This document shows, one piece after another, positions 1 through 13,753 of a stretch of DNA of 64,000 nt. Source of the DNA: Thermoanaerobaculia bacterium (lineage in GTDB: Bacteria; Acidobacteriota; Thermoanaerobaculia; Multivoradales; JAGPDF01); the NCBI GenBank assembly GCA_963699245.1, contig OY969426.1, positions 1,326,316-1,390,315 of the forward strand. Direction: 5' to 3'. Both the position numbers and the translations under genes were made by a program. The notes beneath the pieces were generated by a model. That model had not been told where the DNA came from, did not search any database, and saw only the letters and a program-made list of their open reading frames with translations. Within the stretch, counting starts at the first letter, position 1, and every line of letters starts with the position of its first letter.

Positions 1-1611
1 CGTGGTGCCGTAGCGCGCCGCGATCAGCCAGAGGTTGTCCCCCGCCCGCACCCGGTACTGCACCAGCGTGCCGGCCGGCGTGTCGGTGCGCTGGACGCTC
101 GCCACCTTCGGAGCGGTGCCCGACGAGGTGCTCGAGCCTCCCCCCGGCACCTGCAGGACCTGGCCGATCGACAGCTGGTCGGCGCGGCGCAGGCGGTTCA
201 GCTCCATCAGGCGCGGCACCGAGGTGCGGTACATCGCGGCGATCTTCGACAGCGTCTCGCCCGAGCGCACGCGGTGCGTCGAGGTCGACGCCACCGGCGG
301 CGGCGTCCACTTCGGCAGCGTCTCGAGGCTGGCGAGGAGCGTCGGGCCGCTCTCCGGCGGCACCTTGAGCTTGTAGGAGGCATCGGGCGTCGCGTTGCGG
401 CGCAGCTCGGGGTTGAGCCCCGCCAGCGTCCCCGGCGTGAAGCCCATCGCCCGGTCGAGCGCGTCGAGCGGCGCGGCGCGCGCCACCTCGACCCGCTCGA
501 AGACGACCGGCGCCGCCGGCTGCGGCAGCACGAAGCCGTACTTGGCCGGGTTCTCGACGATCTCGAGGGTGGCGAGGAAGCGCGGCACGTAGCGACGCGT
601 CTCGCGCGGCAGGCGGTTGTAGAGATCCCAGAACTGGTCGAAGTAGCTCACCTTCTGGTTGTTGATCTGGCGCAGCACGTTCTGCTCGCCGCAGTTGTAG
701 GCGGCGAGCGCCGTCAGCCAGTCGCCGAACAGGTCGTGCAGCGCCGAGAGGTAGGCGAGCGCCGCGCGCGTCGCCTTGTCGGGATCCATCCGCTCGTCGA
801 TCCACGAGCTGCGGTCGAGGCCGTAGCGGTAGCCCGTCGAAGGGATGAACTGCCAGAGCCCGAGCGCCCGCGCCGTCGACAGCGCGCGCTCCTTGAAGCC
901 GCTCTCGACGATCGGCAGCCAGGAGAGCTGCTCGGGGAGGCCGGCCTCCTTGAGCTGGGCGAGGATCATCGGCCGGTACATGCCGGAGCGGCGGTAGGCC
1001 TCGAGGAAGAAGTCGCGCTCGCGCCCCTGGAAGCTGGCGATCTCGGCCTGCACATCGGCGTTCATGATGTGCGGGATCGAGCCTTCCTGGTCGCCGACCG
1101 CCGTCTGGCGCGAGGCGTAGATCTCGACCACGCGGCGCGCCACCAGGTGGCGGAGGTTCTCCTTCTCCTGGGCGAGCAGCGCGTTGTCGCTCGGCGGCAC
1201 CGCGAGCATCAGGGAGTAGGCGTGGTCGAGCTCGCTCATCGCCTGGTCGGCCGATCCCTGCGCCCAGAGGGTCCCGGCCGATTCGTAGGCGTCGAGCGCG
1301 TCGTGCAGGAGAGCCTCGGAGTCGGTGGTGTCGGGCTCCCCTTCCGGCGCCTCGCCCGCCGTCTCGTCCGGGGTCTCCTCGCCGGGCAGCAGCTCGCGGG
1401 CGCCGGGCTCCTCGGGGTTCTTCTCGCTGCTGAGCGGAGTGGCCGCCACCGGTTCGGCCGGGACGAGCGGAACCGCCGCCTTCGCGGCCGCCGTGCCCCC
1501 GGCATCGGGCTTCGCCGCCGGGGACTTCGGCGGCTTGCCGCTGCTGCAACCGAGTGCGAGCGCGACGAGCGCGCCGGCGAGAAGGAGACCGACTCTTCCG
1601 CTGTTCATCAT
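1..1611 (-). CDS. mltD: Membrane-bound lytic murein transglycosylase D-like lipoprotein (SLT domain plus at least 2 LysM domains). The N-terminal part is in the window; the gene runs off the left edge.
   Basis: Reverse-strand translation from ATG at 1611 gives MMNSGRVGLLLAGALVALALGCSS (lipobox), then an SLT domain (…LAAYNCGEQNV…) and two LysM repeats (…HRVRSGETLSKIAAMYRTSVPRLMELNRL…QVLQVPG). It is not in the ORF track because it has no in-window stop. Confidence 0.8.
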   Translation of the reverse strand, partial: MMNSGRVGLLLAGALVALALGCSSGKPPKSPAAKPDAGGTAAAKAAVPLVPAEPVAATPLSSEKNPEEPGARELLPGEETPDETAGEAPEGEPDTTDSEALLHDALDAYESAGTLWAQGSADQAMSELDHAYSLMLAVPPSDNALLAQEKENLRHLVARRVVEIYASRQTAVGDQEGSIPHIMNADVQAEIASFQGRERDFFLEAYRRSGMYRPMILAQLKEAGLPEQLSWLPIVESGFKERALSTARALGLWQFIPSTGYRYGLDRSSWIDERMDPDKATRAALAYLSALHDLFGDWLTALAAYNCGEQNVLRQINNQKVSYFDQFWDLYNRLPRETRRYVPRFLATLEIVENPAKYGFVLPQPAAPVVFERVEVARAAPLDALDRAMGFTPGTLAGLNPELRRNATPDASYKLKVPPESGPTLLASLETLPKWTPPPVASTSTHRVRSGETLSKIAAMYRTSVPRLMELNRLRRADQLSIGQVLQVPGGGSSTSSGTAPKVASVQRTDTPAGTLVQYRVRAGDNLWLIAARYGTT

Positions 1612-1738
1612 CCGTGCTTCCCCGATTCTCGACGACGGCCGACGAGCCCGCGGTTCCGCGGCCGCGGTTCCGGCCTCGAGCGAGGCATTGTAGCCGCGCC
1701 GGCCGGAACCGGGTGTGAGGGCCCGAGATCGGGGGGAA

Positions 1739-2587
1739 TCAGCGGCTTTCGATGGTCACGCCGCCGCCGCTCGAGCGCACCTTGAGCCGCGCGCCGCCGC
1801 CGTTCAACTGGCCACGGATGCTGTCGCGCCCGATCTTGCCGCGCACGGTGACCGGCAGGTCGCAGGTCAGGCCGCCGCCGGACGAGTGGGCGTCGAGCTC
1901 GAGCCCGACCGCGGGGTCGACGCGCGCCTGGACGCCGCCGCCCGAGGAGCTCAGGTCGCCCCCCTTGGCGTTGCCGGCCGCGAAGGTGACCTTGACCGAG
2001 CCGCCGGAGCTCTCGGCCAGCACTTCGCCGTGCGCCTCGTCGATGCGGACGCCGCCGCCGCTCGACGACGCGTCGATGTTGCCGCCGACGTTGTTCGCGG
2101 TGATGCCGCCGCCGCTGCTGCGCAGGTCGACGTCGGCCTGGACGTCGTCGACGTGCACGCCGCCGCCGGAGCTCGAGACGCGCAGCCGCGCCGCCAGGCC
2201 GCTCGCGTCGACGCCGCCGCCGCTGCTCTCGATGTCGGCCAGGACGGTCTTCGGCAGGGTGACCTCGACCCGGGTGCGGGCATTCCACCCCGAGGGCCAG
2301 TGCAGGCCCGGCTTGCGCTCGATACGGACGTCGAGGCGGTCGGCGCCGGTGGGCTCGAAGGTCAGGTCGTAGATGTCGGCGAAGTCCTCGCGCGTCGAGG
2401 TGACCACGATCGTCGCCTTGTTGCCGTCGGTGCCGCGCACTTCGACTCCCCCGGCCTCCGAATGGAGATGAAAGCTCCCTCCCGCCGGCAGGTCGAAGCT
2501 CTTCTCGACCCGGAAATCCGCCCGGGCCGCCCCGGCCAGCGCCAGGACCCCCACCACTCCCGCTCCCAGAACGTTCCGTGCACGCAT
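1739..2587 (-). CDS. Secreted DUF4097-like putative adhesin / beta-strand repeat protein
   Basis: The internal start MRARNVLGAGVVGVLALAGAARA is a signal peptide, preceded by GGAGG. The protein contains many SSGGGV repeats. It lies in frame within ORF 1739..2674. Confidence 0.7.
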   Translation of the reverse strand: MRARNVLGAGVVGVLALAGAARADFRVEKSFDLPAGGSFHLHSEAGGVEVRGTDGNKATIVVTSTREDFADIYDLTFEPTGADRLDVRIERKPGLHWPSGWNARTRVEVTLPKTVLADIESSGGGVDASGLAARLRVSSSGGGVHVDDVQADVDLRSSGGGITANNVGGNIDASSSGGGVRIDEAHGEVLAESSGGSVKVTFAAGNAKGGDLSSSGGGVQARVDPAVGLELDAHSSGGGLTCDLPVTVRGKIGRDSIRGQLNGGGARLKVRSSGGGVTIESR

Positions 2588-2720
2588 GCGCAGTTCCTCC
2601 AGGAGACAAGACGGATCGGCGGTCGAAAAGGTTACAGGGATGGGCGCCGGACGACCCCTGGGCCTGCCCTGCAAGGGGACACCCCCGGTCCCCGTCTTCC
2701 AGGACTAGGATAGCGAGCGT

Positions 2721-2948
2721 ATGAAGAGCGAGCTCCTCGACGAAGCCCGGCGCCTGACCCTCGACGAGCGGATCGACCTCGTCGAGGCGATCTGGGACAC
2801 GATCCCCGAGAACGCGGATCGTGACCAGCTCGCGGTGCCGGAAGCACATCGGGAGGAGCTCGACCGCCGCCTCGATGCGATGCGAGAGCATCCCGAGGCG
2901 TCGCGCCCATGGGGCGAGGTTCGCGCTCGCCTCGAGCGCGACCCTTGA
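2721..2948 (+). CDS. Putative addiction-module antitoxin component (TIGR02574-like)
   Basis: 75 aa, MKSELLDEARRLTLDERIDLVEAIWDTIPE…; its stop overlaps the start of the next gene (TTGA). Confidence 0.65.
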   Translation: MKSELLDEARRLTLDERIDLVEAIWDTIPENADRDQLAVPEAHREELDRRLDAMREHPEASRPWGEVRARLERDP

Positions 2949-3244
2949 CCGCCGAGCTTCGACTCCTTTCTCCAGCCGAAGACGACCTCGCGCGAGCCCG
3001 CGCCTGGTATGAAGCCCGCAGACCCGGGCTCGGCGGCGCGTTTCTCGACGCGATTTCCTCGCATCTCGATCGCATCGCCGAGCGCCCGCAGCAGTACCCT
3101 GTCGTCTACCGCGGCCTTCGGCGAGCCGTAGTGCGCCGCTTTCCCTTCCTGATCTATTTCGCCTCCCGCGACGGCAAGGTGACGGTCGTCGCTTGCCTTC
3201 ATGCCCGCCGCCATCCCCGTCGGCTCTCTCCCCGGGCACGCTGA
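2945..3244 (+). CDS. RelE/ParE-family toxin
   Basis: In-frame TTG at 2945 overlaps the antitoxin stop. The sequence …WYEARRPGLGGAFLDAISSHLDRIAERPQQYPVVYRGLRRAVVRRFPFLIYFASRDGKVTVVACLHARRHP has a ParE-like fold signature. Confidence 0.6.
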   Translation: MTAELRLLSPAEDDLARARAWYEARRPGLGGAFLDAISSHLDRIAERPQQYPVVYRGLRRAVVRRFPFLIYFASRDGKVTVVACLHARRHPRRLSPRAR

Positions 3245-3300
3245 CGCGCGTCACCCCGCATCGGCCGTCCGCGCATGCCGAGGTGCGATAGAACTCCGCC

Positions 3301-4638
3301 ATGCGCCTTCGGCTCCTCGCCCTCGCTTTTTTCGCCTTCGCCGCCCCTGCCGCACGCTCCGCACCGGCGGATCCCCCCGCCGCCCCGACGGCCCAGCACC
3401 GGGTGGTGCTGGTCTCGATCGACGGGATGTCCCCTTCGGCCTATCTCGACCCGGACGGCCAGGGGCTGAAGGTTCCGAACCTGCGCCGCCTGAAGGCCGA
3501 GGGCTCGTACGCCCGCGCGGTCGTCGGCGTGCTGCCGACGAACACCTACCCGTCGCACACGACGATCGTCACCGGGGTGCCGCCGCGGGTGCACGGCATT
3601 CTCGGCAACCAGATCTTCGATCCCTACGGGACGTCGAACGAGGCCTGGTACTGGTACGCGGACGAGATCAAGGTCCCGACCCTCTGGACGCGCGCCAAGG
3701 ACGCCGGCCTGGTGGTCGGCTCGGTGGCCTGGCCGGTGACGGTGGGCGCGAAAATCGACGCGCTCGTCCCCGAGTACTGGCGCAGCGGCTCGACGAACCC
3801 GCACGACCTCCACCTCCTGCGCGCCCTCTCGACCCCGGGCCTGGTCGAAGCCGTCGAAGCGAAGCTCGGCCGCGACCTCACGTGGCCCCCGTCCGACGCC
3901 GACCGCACGGAGATCGCGCTCCACATCCTGCGGACCTACAAACCGCACCTCCTGCTCCTCCACCTCGGCGAGCACGACCACTTCCAGCACGCCAACGGCG
4001 TCGGCTCGCCCGAAGCGAAAGCCGCGCTCGAACGCGACGACGCCGAGCTCGGCCGTCTGCGCGCGGCCATCGCGGAGCTCGGGTTCGAGAAGGAGACGAT
4101 ATTCGTCGTCGTCTCCGACCACGGGTTTCTGCCGACGAAGATCTCGTTGCATCCCAACGTGCTGCTGCGCGAGGCGGGGCTGATTACCACCGACGAGGCC
4201 GGCAAGGTGAAGAGCTGGCGGGCGATGTTCTGGACACAGGGGGGGACGGCGCTGCTGCGGCTTGCTGATCCCAGGGACACGGAAGCACTCGACAAGGCGA
4301 GAGCGACTCTGGCCACGAAGGTTGCAGAGCAGAATTCCGGGCTAGAAGCGATCCTCGAGCCGACGGAGATCGAAGCGCAGGGCGCCGATCCGGCGATAAC
4401 GCCGCTGGTGCTGGATGCGAAGAGTGGCTATCGCTTCGACCGCGACGCGGTCGGCGGATGGAGCGGACCTGCGAAGGATGTGGCGGGGCATGGCTACTCG
4501 CCGACACGATCCGTGCTCGCAGCGTCCTTCCTGCTAGCGGGCCGGGGCGTCGAACGCCTTGGCGACGAGGCGCCGATGAGCATGACGGCGATCTTCGCGA
4601 AGGTCCTCGCGTCGGTCGAGGTGCAGCCGGGATCCTGA
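3301..4638 (+). CDS. Secreted ectonucleotide pyrophosphatase/phosphodiesterase (type I phosphodiesterase/NPP family, alkaline-phosphatase superfamily)
   Basis: Signal peptide MRLRLLALAFFAFAAPAARSA; …VVLVSIDGMSPSAYLD…TYPSHTTIVTGVPPRVHGILGNQ…VVSDHGF… are the typical NPP metal-site motifs. Confidence 0.85.
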   Translation: MRLRLLALAFFAFAAPAARSAPADPPAAPTAQHRVVLVSIDGMSPSAYLDPDGQGLKVPNLRRLKAEGSYARAVVGVLPTNTYPSHTTIVTGVPPRVHGILGNQIFDPYGTSNEAWYWYADEIKVPTLWTRAKDAGLVVGSVAWPVTVGAKIDALVPEYWRSGSTNPHDLHLLRALSTPGLVEAVEAKLGRDLTWPPSDADRTEIALHILRTYKPHLLLLHLGEHDHFQHANGVGSPEAKAALERDDAELGRLRAAIAELGFEKETIFVVVSDHGFLPTKISLHPNVLLREAGLITTDEAGKVKSWRAMFWTQGGTALLRLADPRDTEALDKARATLATKVAEQNSGLEAILEPTEIEAQGADPAITPLVLDAKSGYRFDRDAVGGWSGPAKDVAGHGYSPTRSVLAASFLLAGRGVERLGDEAPMSMTAIFAKVLASVEVQPGS

Positions 4639-4651
4639 GAGGGAGATCTCC

Positions 4652-6937
4652 TCAGGGTGCCGACACGCGGACGCCCGCACCAGAAGCCCGCGCCATCGGC
4701 TCCCGCTTCACGCGCGCCCAGGCCTGCCAGATTCGTCGCCGTTCCTCCGCGGTCAGTTTCCAGGAGAGTGGTCCGAGGCCCTGCAGATCGAAATCGAGAA
4801 CCTCGACCTTCACGCCTCGCGCCTCCCATTTCGCCTCGAAGAACTCGAGCTCGAGGCCGTTGCGCTCTTTCTGAGAGGCCTCGCGAACTGACATCAAGGT
4901 CTCGAGCGGAGCGAGACCGGCCGTCACCCAGGCGGAAGAGCTGCGCACTGTCGGCAGCGGCTTCACGTTCGGATCGAACGGAGACAGGCGGATCAGGACG
5001 ATTGGTGGCGCCAGGCAGCTGGTAAGACCAGGACAGTGGCGTGCCAACGCGCCGTCCAGGATTTCGAGCGCCGAAAGCAGCCCGGAGTTCTCCGTGTACC
5101 CGCCGTCGACGAAATGCGCCTGCGGAAGATTCCTCTCGTCGGAACCCTTCGATACCCGCGCCCGCGAGGCGAGGCTGACGAAGGGAAAGCTCGCCGAGAG
5201 GCGCGCCGCAGTGCCGACTTCCACATCCTTGCCGGTGAAGGCGGCGAAGAACGAGCTCGGCGCCGCGCCTCCCTCGATCGCCAACGTCGGTAGAACGAAC
5301 CGTTCGCCCGTCTCCACCGCCGTCGCATTGAGCAACACGAAGGGCTTCTTTCCCGCCCTCGCGTCGCGTCGCCACCCGGCGAGTGTCGGCGCGCCCGACA
5401 ACCGGTGCCGCCAGCTCTGCTCGAGCGCCCAGCTGCGATCCACCTCGGGCCAGAGCGTCGCGACGGGGAAGGAGAAGAGGATCCGCAGCAGGTCGGGATA
5501 GGCGAGGCCCCAGGCCGCGGCGTCGAGGCTGGAGGCGGAGGCGGCTGCGCGGATCGCGGCGACGCGGTCGGCGGAGAGCGGGCCCATGGCTCCGATACCG
5601 GCGAGCGGCGCGTCGGGCAGGCGGTCGACGAAGAACATCGCACCGACCGCGCCCCCCGAAACGCCCGAGATCAGCTTCAGCGACGCCAGGAACTCGCCGC
5701 CGCCCTCACCGGAGGCGAGCCCGGTGAGGGCGGCGGCGGTCCAGGCGCTGGCGGTGATCCCCCCGCCCGCCGCGGCCACCGCGATGATCGGGCGCGGCGG
5801 CGAGCTCCCGTCCCCCTCGAACCAGCCGTCGACGACGTCGAGATCCTCGTCCGCCCGCGCCGGCAGCGGCGCCGCCGGCGCGCGCAGCGCGAAGTAGTGG
5901 TCGGCGCCGAAGGCCGTGTAGAGCAGCGCCGAAACGAGCAGCAGCGCCGGCACTACCGGCACCCGGAAGCGGTCGAGCAGGAACGAAAGCGCCGGCAGCG
6001 CCCAGGCCGCGACGTTGAGGACGAGCAGCAGCGCTCCGAGCGCCGGGAGCGACGGGTCACGATCGCGCGGAAACTCCGCGATCCCGACCGCGACGTAGAC
6101 GAGAGCGCTGGTCGCGAAGAGCCCGGCGGCGGCGAGATGCCCGGTATGCAGATAGCGCCTCCCTTGCGGGTCGACCCAGACATAGCCAGGGCCGAAAGGA
6201 GCGCGGGCGAGGAACGCGGTCAGCCACTCGCGCAGCCGGCGGGCGAAGCGCGGCGTGTGCAGGCGGCCGAAGACCGCCAGCGCGCGACCGGCGCGCGTGC
6301 CGCCGGCGAAGCGATGGCGCGTCTCCGGCGGCGTCAGCCAGGCGGTGGCCAAAGCGCCCCAGGAGCGGAGCAGCTCGGCGGCGGCGAGACCGGCCGCGAT
6401 CGCCAGCAGCCGGTCGATCGCGGCGCCCTCCGAGCGCCGGCCGGCGATCGCCAGCGTCGGCAGCGCCAGCGCGAGCGCCACCGCCGGCGCCCCGGCGGTG
6501 AGCCGGGACTCCCAGCGCCGCTTCGTCCCCCAACTGCGGCGAAAGGCGTTGCGGAACTCGCGGAAACCGAGCCGGATGGCGTCTTCCGCCGCCGGCGACT
6601 CGAGCCCCGGCCAGAGCCGCAGGGGACCGTTGCGGGTCGACGTCCAGAGGGTGGCGACGATCGAATGCCCGAGCAGCTGCGCCAGCGCCGCCACCACCGC
6701 CAGCTCCGCGCCGGAGAGGACGAAGAGGTTGGCGAAGAGCGAGGCCCCCCAGGAGATGGCGAAGAGAGGGAACGCGAAGAAAAGGAGCGCGACGCCGAGA
6801 TGGAAGCGGTGAAACAAGAGCCAGGTGAGGGCGGAGCGCAGACCGGAGACGCTCGGGGAAAGGAGGACTGCACGCCCGCCGGTCCCTCGCGCTCCGTCCC
6901 CCACCTGACTCATTCCGTCGTTTCGTCCGTCAAGCAA
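4652..6937 (-). CDS. Patatin-like phospholipase with a roughly 370-aa N-terminal polytopic membrane domain
   Basis: The C-terminal half carries AAGGGITASAW (oxyanion), GVSGGAVGA (GxSxG) and FVDGGYTENSG (DGG). The N-terminal half contains multiple hydrophobic helices. The start codon is uncertain. Confidence 0.8.
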   Translation of the reverse strand: MLDGRNDGMSQVGDGARGTGGRAVLLSPSVSGLRSALTWLLFHRFHLGVALLFFAFPLFAISWGASLFANLFVLSGAELAVVAALAQLLGHSIVATLWTSTRNGPLRLWPGLESPAAEDAIRLGFREFRNAFRRSWGTKRRWESRLTAGAPAVALALALPTLAIAGRRSEGAAIDRLLAIAAGLAAAELLRSWGALATAWLTPPETRHRFAGGTRAGRALAVFGRLHTPRFARRLREWLTAFLARAPFGPGYVWVDPQGRRYLHTGHLAAAGLFATSALVYVAVGIAEFPRDRDPSLPALGALLLVLNVAAWALPALSFLLDRFRVPVVPALLLVSALLYTAFGADHYFALRAPAAPLPARADEDLDVVDGWFEGDGSSPPRPIIAVAAAGGGITASAWTAAALTGLASGEGGGEFLASLKLISGVSGGAVGAMFFVDRLPDAPLAGIGAMGPLSADRVAAIRAAASASSLDAAAWGLAYPDLLRILFSFPVATLWPEVDRSWALEQSWRHRLSGAPTLAGWRRDARAGKKPFVLLNATAVETGERFVLPTLAIEGGAAPSSFFAAFTGKDVEVGTAARLSASFPFVSLASRARVSKGSDERNLPQAHFVDGGYTENSGLLSALEILDGALARHCPGLTSCLAPPIVLIRLSPFDPNVKPLPTVRSSSAWVTAGLAPLETLMSVREASQKERNGLELEFFEAKWEARGVKVEVLDFDLQGLGPLSWKLTAEERRRIWQAWARVKREPMARASGAGVRVSAP

Positions 6938-7733
6938 TCACCCGCTGCGCGCGCAACGCGCTCTCGAACGCCTTCGCCACCCGCATCGATCCCTTGCGGT
7001 TGGGATGGATCTCGTCCTTCCACTGGTCGATCACGACGCCGCGCGTCTCGACGCGGATCAGGCGCCCGGCGCCGCGCGGCTCGGCGGCGACGGCGTCGAT
7101 CGCTGCGCAGAAGCCGTCGATGAGCAGGCGGACGACGTCCGGCCAGAGCGCCCTGGGGATCTTCCGCTTCTCGAGCGCCGGCTGGAGCCAGGGTCCGGTG
7201 AGCTTGAACGGCCCGACGTAGACGGCGCCCTTCTTCGACGGGATCACGTAGTCGTAAGAATTGACGAAGACCTTGGTCGTGCGGCCGGCGTCGTCGAGCA
7301 GATCGAGCAACTCGCGGTAGCAGTCCTGGATCTGCCGCAGGCGGCGCTCGAAGCGCGAGCGCGCGATCAGATCGGGCGCCTGCGCGCCCGGCGCGTAGTC
7401 GCGCAGGAGCGGCGGCAGATCAGCGCCGATGATGTCGTTGCCGCCGCCCGAAAACAGCAGCGCATCGATCGGAAATCCCTCGAAGATCGTGCGCAGGATC
7501 GCCCGCTGCGCGCCCGAGAGGATCGTCATCACCTCGTCGCCGGCCTTCTCGAGCCGCAGCAGGCACCAGGCGCGCTGGAACTTCGGATCGCCGAGATCCT
7601 GCGGATCGTCGAGCTGCCCGATCGCGTCGGCGTAGGAGAACCACGAGTCCCCCTCGCTGACCACGACGGGCCACTTCGGATGCTCCCGGCGGGAGCGGAT
7701 GAAGTCGGCGAGGAGGGGGCGGAGGTAGGGCAT
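6930..7733 (-). CDS. SGNH/GDSL-family hydrolase
   Basis: VVVSEGDSWFSY (GDS block) and DEIHPN (catalytic DxxH). It overlaps the patatin gene by 8 nt. Confidence 0.8.
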   Translation of the reverse strand: MPYLRPLLADFIRSRREHPKWPVVVSEGDSWFSYADAIGQLDDPQDLGDPKFQRAWCLLRLEKAGDEVMTILSGAQRAILRTIFEGFPIDALLFSGGGNDIIGADLPPLLRDYAPGAQAPDLIARSRFERRLRQIQDCYRELLDLLDDAGRTTKVFVNSYDYVIPSKKGAVYVGPFKLTGPWLQPALEKRKIPRALWPDVVRLLIDGFCAAIDAVAAEPRGAGRLIRVETRGVVIDQWKDEIHPNRKGSMRVAKAFESALRAQRVIA

Positions 7734-7745
7734 CGCGGGTTCCGT

Positions 7746-9077
7746 CTAGTTCCCCGGGCAGGTCGCGCCGGGAAGTCGCGACTGAATACCCTCCCGCGTC
7801 CACTCGGCAGGGTCGTGCGAGGCTGTGTGATCGAACCAGAGCGGCAATGCGAGCTCTGCGATGCGCGGATCTCGGAACTCCTGGCCGCCGCGGTCCGCCA
7901 TGACGACCAGGTCGAGATGCACGCGGACCGCGTACAGGCTGGAGAACTGGGTGAAGTCGGGCCAGTAGAGGTCCGCGTGGACCGGCACCGAGAGCAGCAC
8001 GGCACGGCCGAAGCGGCGCGGCGGGAAGCCGCCGATGCCCCGGCTGGCGAGAAAGACGACGTTCCCGCCATGGCTGTGCGCCCAGACGTTCAGACAGTCG
8101 GCGCCGTGGCTCTTCGCCCAGTCGTTGAGCAGGATCGCGCCCTCGCGCCGCGCCGCGTCGCTCCACGCTCCCGACCAGGCGAAAGGATCTCCTGGATCGG
8201 AATAGAGGTCGGGGACCCAGGTCTTGAGGTAGTCGTGGAAGGCCCCACCCGGGGGCCACCAGCCGCCGTGTGCCGCCCAGGTGCCGTGAACGATCAGGCT
8301 GGTGTGGGCGGGGCGCTGTGGCGGCTTCGGATTCGGCATTGCGGTCAGAGCGCCCAATGCCGGATGCAGCGGATCGAGCCGAGCGAGGCAGGTCGCGGCG
8401 ATATCCCGCAGCAAGTCGTCCTTTGAGTCGACCGCGCGGGCCAAGTCGGGAACGATCCGCTCTGTCGTCTCTCCTGCCTCGAGGATCTCCGGAATCGAAC
8501 AAGCCGCGGCGAGGTGAACGAGCGGATCGGGGTCGTCGAAGCCGGCCAGCAGCGCCAGCGCGACGGTTCGCGCCGCCGGAGCTTCGAGCGCGCGATCGAC
8601 GAGTTCCTTTTCCATCTGAAGTGACCCAGCCCTGTCGAGCCCGGCGAGACGCTGCTCACCCATTTGACGTCGGAGCTCCAGTCGAAGCGCTCCGAGCGTC
8701 GTCCGCTCGACTTGAGCCTTGCTGAGCCCATAGATCCGTTCCGAGACTCCGAGAGCCGCGAGATCTTCCGGCGGCAGAAACGCCTCCGGTTGCTGTCTTG
8801 CGCATTCGGCGCTCTGGTTGGCGATGCACAGCAGCTCGCCGAAAGCGAGCTGAATCGCGGCTCGTGACTGTGCGGCCCGACGATCGTCCACCATCGCATC
8901 GCGTGCGCCGAACGGAGCTGGTTCGCGAACTCGGGGGTAATCGGAGGCCGCGTGCGCGGCGGCAACTCCAATCAGGCATGCCGAGGCAAGAGCGAACAGG
9001 TGCCAGGCCTGGGCAAGCCGCCTGCCGACCTGCTGCGAGCGCCCGGAAGGCATTCGCTGTCGCTCTCGAGCGTTCAT
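7746..9077 (-). CDS. Secreted alpha/beta hydrolase with class-2-lipase-like motifs and an N-terminal HEAT-like repeat region
   Basis: The internal start MNARERQ… (aa 123 of ORF 7746..9443) is preceded by GGAAGGA. The signal peptide is LFALASACLIGVAAAHA. LIVHGTW and VWAHSHGGNVV resemble the Bacillus LipA AHSMGG motif. Its ATG overlaps the upstream gene's TGA (ATGA). Confidence 0.65.
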   Translation of the reverse strand: MNARERQRMPSGRSQQVGRRLAQAWHLFALASACLIGVAAAHAASDYPRVREPAPFGARDAMVDDRRAAQSRAAIQLAFGELLCIANQSAECARQQPEAFLPPEDLAALGVSERIYGLSKAQVERTTLGALRLELRRQMGEQRLAGLDRAGSLQMEKELVDRALEAPAARTVALALLAGFDDPDPLVHLAAACSIPEILEAGETTERIVPDLARAVDSKDDLLRDIAATCLARLDPLHPALGALTAMPNPKPPQRPAHTSLIVHGTWAAHGGWWPPGGAFHDYLKTWVPDLYSDPGDPFAWSGAWSDAARREGAILLNDWAKSHGADCLNVWAHSHGGNVVFLASRGIGGFPPRRFGRAVLLSVPVHADLYWPDFTQFSSLYAVRVHLDLVVMADRGGQEFRDPRIAELALPLWFDHTASHDPAEWTREGIQSRLPGATCPGN

Positions 9078-10471
9078 GAATCTTCCTTCCCCTTGTCGAC
9101 CGACCACTTCAATCCGGCGAGCAGGCTCAGTTCCTTGTTGACTTCGCCCCGGAACTCGGGCCGGTTCGCCCAGACGAGGGAGACGGCGAGGCTGGAGCCG
9201 CCAGCGAGCTTCTCGACCGTCTTGTTGAGCGCCTGGGTCCAGGTCGCGGTGGCCACGAACCGGCTCTGGCGGCGCTCGTCGTCGGTCTGGTCGTACTTCG
9301 CCTCCAGGTCGAATCTCGTTCGGTGGTTGATCGACAGCACCTGCCCATAGATCAGCTTGGCGCTGTAAATGTCGTCGGTCGGCAGGCTGATATCGAGCTC
9401 GGTGCCCGGAACGACGAACGAATAATTCCGAGTCCGTGACCACTCGCCGATGAAGGTCAGTCGCGGTTGCCGTTCCGCCCAGGCCGGCTTGCCGTCGAGA
9501 TATCGCATGAGGTCTCCGGCAGTGCGGAGGCGGCTGCCGCCTTCGCAGCTGCCCTCGCAGAACCCTTTGAGACTCTTGATGCCGTACTCATAGCGGACGC
9601 TTGCAGCGGCGACGTCTGGTCCCGCCGCGCCGACCCGCCGGCGATAGGAGAGCGCTACAGAGCCGACCGAATCGTTGTCCTCGAGCATGGGAAGCGTCTC
9701 GATCAGCCTTGCGTCCATCGCTTCTCCAAGCGCAACGATTTGCACGTCCTTCGGATCTGCTTCCCTGATCGCCTGCCGCGCTGCCTCCCGGCTGTCGGCA
9801 GAGCTCTCGAAAGGCGCCGACTCCTGGAAAGTTGGTCGACTGCTGGACTGCAGCTGGGCGTCATCCCGGCTCTGGCGCTCGCGGTGGGCGATGGTGATCG
9901 AGTTCTTCACAATCTGCCGGGCCACTCTGGCGACGGAGAGCTCCGACGTCTCGGGCTTCTTGCTGCTCCAGAGGATCGCCACCTCGACGTCGTCGAGATC
10001 GTCTAATCCACCCTCGAGAGCCTTGGCTGCATCGGCTCGTTCGCCTTCCGGAAGCGTCTGGATCCCCTCGACGACCGGCGCATAGAGCTGCGACTTCCTC
10101 ACGACGACCTTCGACGAGAGCATGCCCTTCTTGACCAGTTCTTCTCCCCATCTCGGATTGAAGTTGAAGGTGATCTGACCGTTGTCGTCCTCCACCGCGC
10201 CAAGATCGAGCGCCACGAAGAAGCGCTTCGCGAGGTCGAGCTTGCCGCCCCCGAAACCGTCGCTGTTCGCGGTCTCCGCGATCTTGTGGAACTCAGCGGT
10301 CGCTCGCAGAGCAAACTCCTCCTGCAGCGCGGCCGAAATTCGCAACTCGTCGCCGGAAATCACGTCCTCAGTCGCCTCGTCCGAGGGAGTGTCCGCCGCT
10401 CGAACGGGCGCGGAGTGGACAAGCCAGCATCCACACCACAGCAGCAACGAAACTCGGACCACTCGGAACAT
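9074..10471 (-). CDS. Secreted hypothetical protein (466 aa) with a K/S/N/I-rich, low-GC-like composition
   Basis: Internal start MFRVVRVSLLLWCGCWLVHSAPVRA (signal peptide) at aa 34 of ORF 9074..10570. No domain was recognised. It is the first gene of the four-gene operon. Confidence 0.6.
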   Translation of the reverse strand: MFRVVRVSLLLWCGCWLVHSAPVRAADTPSDEATEDVISGDELRISAALQEEFALRATAEFHKIAETANSDGFGGGKLDLAKRFFVALDLGAVEDDNGQITFNFNPRWGEELVKKGMLSSKVVVRKSQLYAPVVEGIQTLPEGERADAAKALEGGLDDLDDVEVAILWSSKKPETSELSVARVARQIVKNSITIAHRERQSRDDAQLQSSSRPTFQESAPFESSADSREAARQAIREADPKDVQIVALGEAMDARLIETLPMLEDNDSVGSVALSYRRRVGAAGPDVAAASVRYEYGIKSLKGFCEGSCEGGSRLRTAGDLMRYLDGKPAWAERQPRLTFIGEWSRTRNYSFVVPGTELDISLPTDDIYSAKLIYGQVLSINHRTRFDLEAKYDQTDDERRQSRFVATATWTQALNKTVEKLAGGSSLAVSLVWANRPEFRGEVNKELSLLAGLKWSVDKGKEDS

Positions 10472-10663
10472 GATCGCCCCCTGCCGGCCAGCGCTCGAAC
10501 CGCGAGCATTCGTTGCTCGGGCGGCGCCAGAACCTGCTTGACCGGTGTCCTCCTTGGACGGACTCACCACGCCCCTTCCACCCCGGAAAATCCCCCTTTC
10601 GTCACGACCAGTCGGTACCCCTTACTTATTAGACGAACGGCGAAGCCAAACCGAACAGATTTC

Positions 10664-10692: not shown

Positions 10693-10723
10693 CCGCAGCG
10701 ATCTGGGGGAAAGGAGGCAGGCG

Positions 10724-11314
10724 GTGGCGGCCGGCAGGCGGACGGCGGGGGCTCGCGCCCCGCGACGGAGGGGGTTGGCCGGGCTGGCGGAGCTCTCTCC
10801 CCTGCTCGAGCGACTGCTCCCCTCCATCCGCGCCTGGGCCCATGGCCGCCTGCCGAACGGAGCGCGCAGCCGGATCGAGACCGGCGACCTCGTGCAGGAA
10901 GCGGCGGTCGGCGCCCTGCAGCACCTGCCGGACGAGCGGCTCGCCTGCCCGGCGACCCTCCGCAGCTACATCCAGACCTCGATCCAGAACCGCATCGTCG
11001 ACGAGCTGCGGCGCGCCGGCCGGGTCGAGACGTCGGATCCCGAGGCCGAGACGCGCGCCCTCGACACCGCGCCGTCGCCGCTCGAGGCCGTCATCGACGC
11101 CGAGGACCGGCACCGCTTCCGCGCCGCGCTGGCGGACCTCGACAACGACGAACAGATGCTGGTCGTCGGCCGCGTCGAGCTCGGCTACTCCTACCGGCGG
11201 CTCGCGCTGGCGACCGGCCGCGCCACCGCCGACGCGGCGCGCGTCGCCACCCAGCGCGCCGTCCTCCACCTGGCGCGCCTGATGGGCCGCCACCGCGCGC
11301 AGCCGCGCGCCTGA
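10724..11314 (+). CDS. ECF-family RNA polymerase sigma factor (sigma-70 regions 2 and 4)
   Basis: A GTG start with AAGGAGG 7 nt upstream. The sequence …LLERLLPSIRAWAHGRL…DLVQEAAVGALQHL…LRSYIQTSIQNRIVDELRR… (region 2) has a C-terminal HTH (region 4). The upstream part of ORF 10286..11314 is non-coding-like. Confidence 0.8.
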   Translation: MAAGRRTAGARAPRRRGLAGLAELSPLLERLLPSIRAWAHGRLPNGARSRIETGDLVQEAAVGALQHLPDERLACPATLRSYIQTSIQNRIVDELRRAGRVETSDPEAETRALDTAPSPLEAVIDAEDRHRFRAALADLDNDEQMLVVGRVELGYSYRRLALATGRATADAARVATQRAVLHLARLMGRHRAQPRA

Positions 11315-11341: not shown

Positions 11342-13753
11342 ATGATCGGAGAACAGCTCGGGCACTACCGCATCCTCGACCGGCTTGGCGCCGGCGGCAT
11401 GGGAGAAGTCTGGCTGGCCGAGGATCTCGAGCTCGGGCGCAAGGTCGCCATCAAGACCCTGCGCCGCGACGTCGCGGCGACGCCGACCCAGCGGGCGCGC
11501 TTCGAGCGCGAGGCGCGCTCCGTCGCGGCGCTCAATCACCCCAACATCGTCACGCTGTACAGCGTCGAGGAGGCCGAAGGCCTTCGCTTCCTCGTCATGG
11601 AGTACGTCGAGGGGGTGCGCCTCGGCGACCGCATCCCCAGCGGCGGCCTGCCGCCGGGCGAGGCGCTCAAGCTGGGCGCCGCGATCGCCGACGCGCTCGC
11701 CGCCGCGCACGCGCACGGCATCGTTCACCGCGATCTCAAGCCGGGCAACGTGCTGCTGGCGCCCGACGGCCGCGTCAAGGTCGTCGACTTCGGCCTGGCG
11801 CGCGCGCTCGGATCCGACGCCGCGCCGTTCCGGGGGAGCCGCGGCGAGACCACGCTGACCCAGGAGGGCGTGGCGCTCGGCACCCTGAACTACATGTCTC
11901 CCGAGCAGCTCGAAGGAGCGACGGTCGATCACAGGTCCGATCTCTTCTCGCTCGGGGTCGTCCTCCACGAGATGATCACCGGCCAGGTGCCCTTCGCCGG
12001 CGACTCGGCGGTGCGGGTGATCTCGGCCATCCTGCGCGACCGCCCCGACCGCGTCGACGTGGCATCGCGCCACATCCCCCCGTCGGTGGCGGACCTCGTC
12101 GAGCGCCTGCTCGCCAAGGATCCGGCCGATCGCCCTGCCACCGCGGCCGAGGCGCGCGACATCCTCCTCGACGCTCTGCGCCTGATCGGCGCCGCGACGA
12201 CGGCGACCGACCTGCCGCGCACGCTCGGCCGCCGCGGCCCGCAGGGATCAGCGGCACGGCGCCGGCGGCGCGCGACCGTCGCGGCGACGCTCGCCCTCCC
12301 CCTGCTCGGCCTCGCGCTCTGGCTCGGCCGCTCGCGCCTCCACGGCGGGGAGCCCGCCCCCGGCAGCGCCGCCGCGCCGCCCGCGATCGCCGTGCTGCCG
12401 CTGGCGAATTTCTCGGGCGATCCCGACTTCTTCGTCGACGGCATGACCGACGGGCTGATCGGCGCGCTGGCGCGCGTCGAAGGGCTGCGCGTCATCTCGC
12501 GCCAGTCGGTCATGCGCTACAAGGGCTCCGACAAGCGACTGCCCGAGATCGCCAAGGAGCTCGGCGTCGACTACATCGTCGAGGCCTCGCTCCGCCGCGA
12601 GGCCGGGCGCCTGCGCGTCCAGGCGCAGCTTTTCCGCCCGGCGCCGGAAGAGCAGCTCTGGAGCGACGCCTTCGAGCGCCCCGAGCCGGAGGTGCTGGCG
12701 CTGCATGCCGACGTCGCCCGTGCGGTCGCCGGCGCCGTCCACGTCGTCATCCCGGCCACCCTCGCCGTTCGCTTCGAAACGGCCCGCTCCGTCGAGCCGG
12801 CGGTCTACGAGGCCTACCTGCGCGGCCGCCACCTGGTCGAGGAGTCGCGGCCCGAGAGCCTCCAGCAGGCGCGAGATGCCTTCGACGAGGCGCTCGAGCC
12901 GGATCCGAAGTTCGCCCCGGCGCACGCCGGCCTCGCCAGCGCCTTCGGGTTGCTCGCCTACCTCTTCCAGGAGCCCGCCGCGAACGCCTCCCGTCAGGAG
13001 GCGGAGGCGCTCAAGGCGATCGAGCTCGATCCCGACCTCGCCGAGGCCTACGTCGAGCTCGGCGACCTGCAGCGCTACTTCCGCTGGGACTGGAGCGCCA
13101 GCGAGACGAGCTACCGCCGCGCGCTGGCGATCGACCCGAACAGCGCCGCCGCGCACCGCGGGCTCTGGGGCCTGCTGGCGAGCCTGGGCCGGCTCGCCGA
13201 GGCGCGGCTCGAGATCGAGCGCGCCCGCCAGCTCGACCCGCTCTCGGCGGCGATCGAGAACGATCTCGGCTACCAGGCGATCTTCGAGCTCAAGCTCACT
13301 CTCGCGAAGGTCGCGTTCCGCCGCGCTCTCGAGCTCGACCCCGCCTTCCCCTCGGCCCACGGCGGCCTCTGGCTGGTCGCCGATCTCGAGCGCGACGATC
13401 CGGCGCGCACGCAGGAGATGCTGCTCTGGCTCGACGGCATGGGCTACGGCTGGGCCGCGGACGCCGCCCGCGGCGACGGCAAGCCGCGGGCCTACCGTGA
13501 AGCGGCGCGCGACGCGGCGCTCGCGCTCGCGGCGCGGCGCTCGGGCCAGCGCATCTCTCTCGGCGTCGGCGGCGCGCTGCTGGCGAGCGCCGGCGAGCTC
13601 GACGTCGCCGCGGCCTGGCTGCGCCAGGGCTACGAGGAGCGCGACCCCGAGCTCGTCTGGCTCGCCCTGGATCCCTCCTGGCGGGCGCTGCGCGCCTCGG
13701 AGAGCTTCAGGACGATGGTGGCCGCGATGAAGCTGCAGCCTCGTGACCGCTAG
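11342..13753 (+). CDS. Ser/Thr protein kinase with a C-terminal TPR-repeat domain
   Basis: YRILDRLGAGGMGEVWLAED…AIKTL…HRDLKPGNVLL…DFGLA (Hanks kinase motifs). A transmembrane segment is followed by TPR-like repeats. Confidence 0.85.
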   Translation: MIGEQLGHYRILDRLGAGGMGEVWLAEDLELGRKVAIKTLRRDVAATPTQRARFEREARSVAALNHPNIVTLYSVEEAEGLRFLVMEYVEGVRLGDRIPSGGLPPGEALKLGAAIADALAAAHAHGIVHRDLKPGNVLLAPDGRVKVVDFGLARALGSDAAPFRGSRGETTLTQEGVALGTLNYMSPEQLEGATVDHRSDLFSLGVVLHEMITGQVPFAGDSAVRVISAILRDRPDRVDVASRHIPPSVADLVERLLAKDPADRPATAAEARDILLDALRLIGAATTATDLPRTLGRRGPQGSAARRRRRATVAATLALPLLGLALWLGRSRLHGGEPAPGSAAAPPAIAVLPLANFSGDPDFFVDGMTDGLIGALARVEGLRVISRQSVMRYKGSDKRLPEIAKELGVDYIVEASLRREAGRLRVQAQLFRPAPEEQLWSDAFERPEPEVLALHADVARAVAGAVHVVIPATLAVRFETARSVEPAVYEAYLRGRHLVEESRPESLQQARDAFDEALEPDPKFAPAHAGLASAFGLLAYLFQEPAANASRQEAEALKAIELDPDLAEAYVELGDLQRYFRWDWSASETSYRRALAIDPNSAAAHRGLWGLLASLGRLAEARLEIERARQLDPLSAAIENDLGYQAIFELKLTLAKVAFRRALELDPAFPSAHGGLWLVADLERDDPARTQEMLLWLDGMGYGWAADAARGDGKPRAYREAARDAALALAARRSGQRISLGVGGALLASAGELDVAAAWLRQGYEERDPELVWLALDPSWRALRASESFRTMVAAMKLQPRDR

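Follow-up and report, generated by a model that had tools for sequence, protein, structure and literature searches.

The window, a 64,000-nt stretch of the genome of a Thermoanaerobaculia bacterium (Acidobacteriota; contig OY969426.1) in which positions are counted from the first letter, contains a complete gene on the reverse strand (4652..6913) for a 753-aa protein, in which an N-terminal membrane domain of seven helices is joined to a C-terminal patatin domain. This protein is probably an integral inner-membrane patatin serine acyl-hydrolase, possibly a transacylase, which faces the periplasm and takes part in the turnover or remodelling of envelope lipids; we infer its substrate and physiological role by analogy. 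By fold and motifs it belongs to the patatin superfamily, and it is not of the CapV/CapE type, the PlpD type or the NTE type.

Seven-helix membrane domain and patatin domain

The open reading frame (ORF) listed mechanically for this gene spans 4652..6937 on the reverse strand, and the TTG at 6937 is only its mechanical start; the stop codon lies at 4652-4654, and the ATG at 6913 (6911-6913) is the likely start of the 753-aa protein. An identical protein (P0001 in the database) has been called in NCBI, ENA and Logan alike, independently on two assemblies, the NCBI/ENA genome contig (3.8 Mb) and a Logan contig. The GC content of third codon positions (GC3) is 0.8-1.0, in a genome of about 70% GC, continuously in the frame of the patatin gene from 6910 to about 4700, the N-terminal part included, and the upstream gene lies in another frame. 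The hydrophobic N-terminal third is thus translated and, since it is also conserved at the protein level (38 homologues from a word search and 1,673 profile matches), the membrane domain does not lie upstream of the true start.

The membrane domain comprises residues 1-340 (5894..6913, reverse strand), as defined by hydropathy and AlphaFold2, and is conserved in 160 aligned full-length members of the family, all of them divergent. Kyte-Doolittle hydropathy gives seven hydrophobic segments within residues 32-337, assigned to transmembrane helices TM1 (32-52), TM2 (68-90), TM3 (137-158), TM4 (165-184), TM5 (259-279), TM6 (293-313) and TM7 (320-337), and the AlphaFold2 model has long high-confidence helices at residues 20-52, 68-100, 132-160, 165-193, 257-279, 291-316 and 320-335. 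Two large Arg-rich loops, predicted to be cytoplasmic (residues 91-136 and 185-258), contain amphipathic helices and a beta-hairpin in the model. All seven helices have a mean Eisenberg hydrophobicity (⟨H⟩) of 0.30-0.73 (family means 0.48-0.79). Their hydrophobic moment is low, which sets them apart from the amphipathic helices of the loops (⟨H⟩ below 0, moment 0.6-0.75).

Several polar residues of this domain are conserved at 0.86-0.99 in the 160 divergent members, namely R36 (0.99), R99 (0.98), Y244, H259 (0.93), D314 (0.98), R315, R317 (0.96), D338 (0.95) and H339 (0.89). The most conserved stretch (5897..5974, reverse strand) consists of the DRFRVP motif at the TM6/TM7 turn (residues 314-319), TM7 itself and D338-H339 at the helix exit. 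The seven-helix domain is a membrane domain absent from Pfam and without a PDB match: it has no PDB sequence relative, and Foldseek against PDB returned no related fold (best E 0.6, probability 0.15). A PAP2 or 'lipocone' identity, suggested by an SGH-like motif, was rejected, as Foldseek found no related PDB fold, and the lipocone paper describes no such fusion with patatin (PMC12419801).

A profile of the membrane domain only, searched against 1.84 billion representatives of 50% identity clusters, matched 1,673 proteins at E<=1e-3, of which 1,189 also reach E<=1e-10, and nearly all are 650-1000 aa long with the membrane domain at or near the N-terminus. Behind it, Pfam detected a C-terminal Patatin match in 20 of 25 distant members. 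One apparent stand-alone copy of the membrane domain (P0041, 370 aa) was checked and rejected as such, being a truncated gene that stops inside the GGG motif (end AAAGEGIQAAA*). The fusion thus appears, among the members examined, to be the obligate architecture of the family.

The catalytic half, residues 376-745 (4679..5788, reverse strand), is modelled as a divergent patatin domain, in which the GGG oxyanion hole is intact and both Ser419 and Asp603 are present. The label is not trivial, since the protein itself has no match in Pfam (to E=10), NCBIfam or PADLOC (E<=1), and a family profile searched against PDB sequences found nothing relevant and no patatin. Modelling from 38 homologues with AlphaFold2 gave a confident structure (mean pLDDT 87.3, pTM 0.90), with long N-terminal helices and a patatin fold. 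Every significant Foldseek match to PDB was of patatin fold (E 5e-6 to 5e-4, probability 1.0), led by CapE (9ion, E=5e-6), CapV (9kej), potato patatin (1oxw/4pkb) and PlpD (5fya/5fqu), all with a TM-score on target of 0.53-0.67, and followed by cPLA2; the 20 PDB chains at E<=1e-3 are all CapE/CapV-type lipases, potato patatin or PlpD. The query lies below the gathering threshold of Pfam PF01734 (27.7 bits), whereas relatives exceed it at 28-41 bits, including the full-length P0076 (40.9 bits) and P0136 (38.6 bits), and some other full-length relatives only approach it. Membership of the patatin family is accordingly one of transitive homology, as it is full-length relatives and not the query that pass the Pfam threshold.

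The catalytic motifs, all on the reverse strand, are the oxyanion-hole motif GGGITA (residues 383-388; 5750..5767), the nucleophile elbow GVSGG with the catalytic Ser419 (residues 417-421; 5651..5665) and the DGG with Asp603 of the Ser-Asp dyad (residues 603-605; 5099..5107). The glycine triplet G383-G385 is conserved at 0.99-1.00 in alignments of 38 and of 160 sequences, and among the 160 divergent members S419 and G420 reach 1.00, G421 at least 0.99, D603 0.99 and G604 0.98. A C-terminal motif, PLSWKL (residues 715-720; 4754..4771), is also conserved (P715 0.96, W718 0.98). The basic residue of the pattern GGGx[K/R]G is absent from GGGITA, and this is typical of the family: of the 127 motif-complete members, 73 have Q at position 5 of the pattern, 38 have T, 9 have R and 1 has K. 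Since the basic oxyanion residue varies among patatin-like enzymes, its absence does not disqualify the domain as a patatin; the replacement of Arg/Lys by Q or T suggests that head groups are recognised otherwise than in classical phospholipase-A-type patatins.

The preliminary description of this DNA, which had placed a gene in the mechanical ORF, with a polytopic membrane domain followed by a C-terminal patatin domain carrying GGGITA without Arg/Lys, GxSxG and DGG, is borne out on all these points: hydropathy, AlphaFold2 and Foldseek confirm the architecture, and the start codon falls before, not after, the N-terminal region.

Membrane orientation and proposed activity

The distribution of charge was computed over two sets of members, 20 of them close and 160 distant. 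The N-terminus and loops 2-3, 4-5 and 6-7 have a Lys/Arg density of 0.149, compared with 0.090 in the other loops and the linker after TM7, with a bias in the same direction in 141 of 160 members, and the post-TM7 linker is net acidic. TM7 (⟨H⟩ 0.71, moment 0.14) resembles TM1-6 and not the amphipathic loop helices, and since it makes the number of crossings seven, the N- and C-termini would lie on opposite membrane faces. Two metagenomic relatives carry additional N-terminal domains with no hydrophobic segment before them, Nuc_deoxyrib_tr in P0028 (E=3e-23) and a caleosin-related domain in P0027 (E=3e-10). Such fusions are rare in the family and the added domains are ones which we take to be of cytoplasmic type, which fits an N-terminus inside the cell. 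As a side observation, they hint that cytoplasmic ligand-binding modules can be coupled to the seven-helix domain.

Cysteine numbers differ between the two halves of these proteins. Of the 150 members with any cysteine in the patatin half, 113 have an even count there and 37 an odd one (p=4e-10), with a sawtooth at 2, 4 and 6, and for the membrane half of the same proteins the figures are 71 even and 69 odd (p=0.93). The cysteines of the patatin half are spread over many alignment columns, so the bias does not reflect a single inherited pair. Even cysteine numbers are preferred in exported and extracytoplasmic proteins (PMC7678975). The only two cysteines of the window protein lie in the segment CPGLTSC (residues 627-633; 5015..5035, reverse strand); the C627/C633 pair is present in nine of the ten closest homologues and both residues are lost together in the tenth (P0005). 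C627 and C633 probably form a disulfide loop.

The charge bias, the hydrophobic TM7, the N-terminal fusions and the even-cysteine bias together place the patatin domain in the periplasm, and on these sequence features the catalytic half most likely faces that compartment. The charge bias, the hydrophobicity of helix 7 and the cysteine parity speak against the cytoplasm-side, CapV-like enzyme implied by the preliminary description. Members with C-terminal extensions were searched with Pfam for an accessory domain that could mark the topology, and only Patatin was found.

In the mechanism proposed, the N-terminus would lie in the cytoplasm and the seven helices would carry the patatin domain to the periplasmic face, where the C627-C633 pair would form its disulfide. 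Ser419, activated by Asp603, would attack an acyl ester of an envelope glycerolipid. The inner membrane's outer leaflet would supply this lipid, with the membrane domain, on which the catalytic domain sits, probably guiding it, and the products would be a free fatty acid and a lysolipid, unless the acyl group were transferred to another acceptor. The physiological role would be the turnover or remodelling of envelope lipids. The patatin products may be processed, within the closest clade, by a cytoplasmic SGNH 'lysophospholipase-like' esterase whose gene lies directly upstream of the patatin gene.

Several points weigh against this reading. The periplasmic placement rests on indirect statistics; the p-value for cysteine parity overstates independence, because the family members are related, and the charge bias of the post-TM7 linker is modest across the family (net -1.3). 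The periplasmic model leaves unexplained the conserved polar cluster of R36, R99, H259, D314 and R317, whose predicted place is the cytoplasmic face, away from the patatin domain. The coupling to the SGNH esterase may be mere synteny, since three of three sampled SGNH loci lack the patatin gene, and, as the esterase has no signal peptide, the membrane would lie between the two enzymes.

Some of these points favour the opposite orientation, in which TM7 would not fully cross the membrane, or there would be an eighth crossing, and the patatin domain would lie on the cytoplasmic face by the Arg/His/Asp cluster. Such an enzyme would deacylate inner-leaflet phospholipids, in a turnover resembling the Lands cycle, together with the cytoplasmic SGNH esterase. 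The conserved R36, R99, H259, D314 and R317 would then all be at the interface nearest the catalytic domain, the SGNH gene, without a signal peptide, is translationally close to or overlaps the patatin gene in the window and at two related loci (L004 and L005), and the TM7 helix of the AlphaFold model has only 16 residues. However, TM7 is as hydrophobic and non-amphipathic as TM1-6, the acidic linker obeys the positive-inside rule for an outside location, and the even-cysteine bias is confined to the patatin half, which leaves this orientation unlikely.

A periplasmic patatin domain might also be one part of a trans-membrane acyl-transfer or signal-coupled enzyme, in which the Arg/His/Asp site on the cytoplasmic face would bind an anionic cytoplasmic ligand, which could be a regulator or a donor of acyl groups such as acyl-CoA or acyl-phosphate. 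An acyl group or conformational signal would then be passed on to the patatin serine in the periplasm; the model here is that of the AT3-SGNH and MBOAT-SGNH acyltransferases. The seven-helix domain would then be more than an anchor. R36, R99, H259, D314, R315 and R317 are near-invariant in a domain otherwise free to vary, the membrane domain never occurs without patatin in the members examined, and the rare N-terminal fusions add cytoplasmic ligand-binding domains. The patatin domain shares its fold with FabD-type acyltransferases. A polytopic membrane domain with a periplasmic serine-hydrolase-fold domain is moreover an established acyltransferase architecture (PMC9833829, PMC12148441). Neither by sequence nor by Foldseek, however, does the seven-helix domain resemble AT3, MBOAT or another membrane protein in PDB, and the conserved charges could be merely structural or topology-determining, so that this reading seems rather improbable. 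It is likewise unlikely, if conceivable, that the domain is a new membrane fold coupling a cytoplasmic donor or regulator to the periplasmic, disulfide-bonded patatin serine. If it were, the protein would stand for a new enzyme class, that of a trans-membrane acyltransferase or of a lipase regulated across the membrane, and one found widely among Acidobacteriota, Nostocales, Planctomycetota and Myxococcota.

Known patatins and the question of defence

CapV and CapE, effectors of the cyclic-oligonucleotide-based antiphage signalling system (CBASS), are soluble, cytoplasmic, cyclic-nucleotide-activated enzymes encoded beside a cGAS/DncV-like nucleotidyltransferase (CD-NTase). They have in common with the window protein the patatin alpha/beta fold (9kej and 9ion; E 5e-6 to 4e-5, TM-score on target about 0.6), the Gly-rich oxyanion loop, the GxSxG serine and the DGG aspartate. 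Their length is about 300-340 aa, whereas the window protein adds a 340-aa seven-helix N-terminal domain, is 11-16% identical to them, lacks a cyclase neighbour, a PADLOC match and the oxyanion Arg/Lys, and is predicted to be periplasmic.

PlpD of Pseudomonas aeruginosa (type Vd secretion; 5fya) provides a case of a patatin domain working outside the cytoplasm, in the envelope, and matches the window protein in fold (E about 1e-4, TM-score on target 0.63-0.67). PlpD leaves the cytoplasm by means of a signal peptide and has a POTRA domain and a beta-barrel as its outer-membrane anchor, whereas the anchor of the window protein is an N-terminal helical bundle in the inner membrane; no POTRA or beta-barrel Pfam domain was found in it, and it ends about 8 residues past the patatin domain. 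In NTE (PNPLA6), a patatin domain tethered by an N-terminal transmembrane sequence acts on the cell's own phospholipids, with one transmembrane helix and cyclic-nucleotide-binding domains, and faces the cytosol. The window protein differs in its seven-helix bundle and the lack of a cyclic-nucleotide-binding domain, with no Pfam match to cNMP_binding in the query or in 25 relatives scanned.

The working analogy for the window protein, which implies no homology, is PlaF of P. aeruginosa, an alpha/beta-hydrolase with a single N-terminal transmembrane helix. PlaF is a phospholipase A1 bound to the membrane, with its N-terminal anchor in the cytoplasmic membrane and its catalytic domain in the periplasm, which degrades or remodels the cell's own glycerophospholipids (PMC9132575). 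A multi-helix inner-membrane domain combined with an extracytoplasmic nucleophile domain, which uses serine or cysteine and handles acyl groups, is also found (PMC9833829, PMC12148441) in the AT3-SGNH proteins OafA/OafB, the MBOAT-SGNH proteins PatA/PatB and Lnt. The membrane domain of the window protein is dissimilar to theirs in sequence and fold, and its catalytic domain is a patatin, not an SGNH or nitrilase domain. What is novel in the present family is that the patatin is, apparently obligately, fused to a seven-helix domain as yet unclassified, that it is predicted to face the periplasm and that its oxyanion motif has the Q/T variant.

The preliminary description had offered two roles, lipid remodelling and a suicide or abortive-infection effector, and had pointed to known defence effectors for comparison; the first role fits the evidence and the second does not. 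That the protein is a defence effector, a membrane-resident patatin destroying its own membrane when triggered, as CapV and CapE do in CBASS, is very improbable: the best structural matches of the patatin model are indeed CapE and CapV, the rare relative P0028 has an N-terminal Nuc_deoxyrib_tr domain, whose fold also occurs in defence systems, and a ParE toxin-antitoxin pair lies 1.4 kb from the gene, but PADLOC gave no match for the patatin gene or five nearby ORFs, the adjoining genes are the SGNH esterase upstream and an ENPP-type phosphodiesterase downstream and not a cyclase or sensor, no partner gene is conserved across 85 family loci, the phage records, 50,697 in number, contain no relative, only 3 of 72,556 plasmids carry one, the GC content of the gene is host-like, being that of its surroundings, and a nucleotide signal in the cytoplasm could not directly reach a catalytic domain predicted to be periplasmic. 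There is no support for a setting of the defence-island or CBASS-like kind.

Neighbouring genes and distribution of the family

The gene directly upstream, on the same strand (6930..7733), encodes the SGNH/GDSL-type esterase of 267 aa, with 16 nt between its stop codon and the patatin ATG. The block I Ser (in GDSWFS, residues 28-33; 7635-7652), the block III GxND Asn (in GGGND, residues 96-100; 7434-7448) and the block V DxxH (in DEIHP, residues 240-244; 7002-7016) are all present, all on the reverse strand, also in four full-length orthologues. The esterase itself has no match to PF13472 (gathering threshold 32.9 bits); the orthologues have sub-threshold Lipase_GDSL_2 matches of 16.5-22.5 bits over most of the profile, and some database homologues carry precomputed PF13472 or the JGI name 'lysophospholipase L1-like esterase'.

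Orthologues of the esterase, 62-73% identical, adjoin or lie near the patatin gene at five related loci (L002, L003, L004, L005 and L009), overlapping it by 4 nt in L004, and SGNH orthologues also appear to share contigs with the homologues P0005 and P0011. An obligate SGNH-patatin pair was nevertheless rejected, given the three sampled SGNH loci without patatin and the lack of SGNH at most of the more distant loci, and the link is clade-specific and one-sided. Two side observations concern these loci. In L005 (9218-9977, forward strand) the SGNH gene upstream of the homologue P0017 is frameshifted into two tblastn segments, with only the C-terminal 123 aa called as a gene, and may be a pseudogene or an assembly error. 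In L004, from a metagenomic relative, a phospholipase D-family gene (508-1731, forward strand; PLDc_2, E=6e-37) lies directly before the SGNH and membrane patatin genes, giving three lipid-hydrolase-type genes in a row.

On the other side, an ENPP-like type I phosphodiesterase/nucleotide pyrophosphatase gene (3301-4638, forward strand; PF01663, E=2.7e-47) converges on the patatin gene with 13 nt between the stop codons. Lysolipids are substrates of some ENPP enzymes, but other family loci do not share this neighbour. Further along is a type II toxin-antitoxin pair on the forward strand, an Unstab_antitox antitoxin (2721-2948; E=1.8e-14) overlapped by the ParE toxin (2909-3244; E=4.6e-8), which sits within a mechanically listed 564-aa antisense ORF (1608..3302).

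Upstream of the SGNH gene lies an ORF on the reverse strand (7746-9077; probable start MNARERQ...) with a signal-peptide-like N-terminus and weak HEAT-repeat matches, in whose C-terminal part 'IVHGTW...' and 'VWAHSHGGNVV' resemble the oxyanion motif and nucleophile elbow of alpha/beta-hydrolases. On this resemblance the ORF is a candidate for a third lipase-like gene in this row; it has no support from Pfam or PDB and is absent near any family homologue. The protein encoded at 9074-10570 (reverse strand) has a probable internal start and a probable signal peptide (MFRVVRVSLLLWCGCWLVHSAPVRA), with a weak sub-threshold match to PIN_2. The region 8500-10500 is lower in GC (0.64-0.66) than its surroundings, and gene boundaries at about 8500-9100 are uncertain, because the GC3 phase is ambiguous there.

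All-against-all ORF clustering of the 85 family loci revealed no family-wide partner, the recurrent clusters being shadow ORFs or generic kinases, ABC ATPases and short-chain dehydrogenases/reductases, and window neighbours other than the SGNH gene were not found near any family homologue. A conserved multi-gene system was rejected on these grounds and also because an 895-aa protein encoded beside the homologues in L002 and L003 is not in the window. No tRNA genes were found in the window. An extracytoplasmic function (ECF)-type sigma factor (10700-11314, forward strand; Sigma70_r2, E=5e-9), followed by a Ser/Thr protein kinase with TPR repeats (11342-13753, forward strand), is transcribed divergently from the gene cluster whose last member is the patatin gene. 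In L002 the 69%-identical homologue is flanked by the same pair of sigma factor and kinase, and in L003 the homologue has a Sigma70_r2 gene next to it; such a sigma factor nearby may point to control by envelope stress.

Relatives of the patatin protein are present in at least 413 GTDB species genomes, from Thermoanaerobaculia and other Acidobacteriota, Nostocales (Nostoc, Anabaena and Calothrix), Planctomycetota, Polyangia (Myxococcota) and Verrucomicrobiia. Acidobacteriota, Nostocales, Planctomycetota and Myxococcota account for the bulk, and the family occurs mostly in diderm bacteria. The database names are generic ('hypothetical protein', 'RssA-like', 'patatin-like phospholipase family protein'), one of them from a metagenome-assembled genome of Nitrospinota, and a full-text literature search found no paper describing the seven-helix and patatin architecture.

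How bacteria break down and remodel their envelope lipids in a controlled way is poorly understood, and PlaF is a recent case among the few inner-membrane phospholipases characterised. The family is large (1,673 clusters at 50% identity) and present in culturable genera, some of them genetically tractable (Nostoc, Anabaena and Terriglobus). Its function, once shown, would bring a new class of enzyme into the picture of envelope lipid homeostasis and define a new membrane-domain family, and would temper the reflex reading of bacterial patatins near toxin-like genes as defence effectors.

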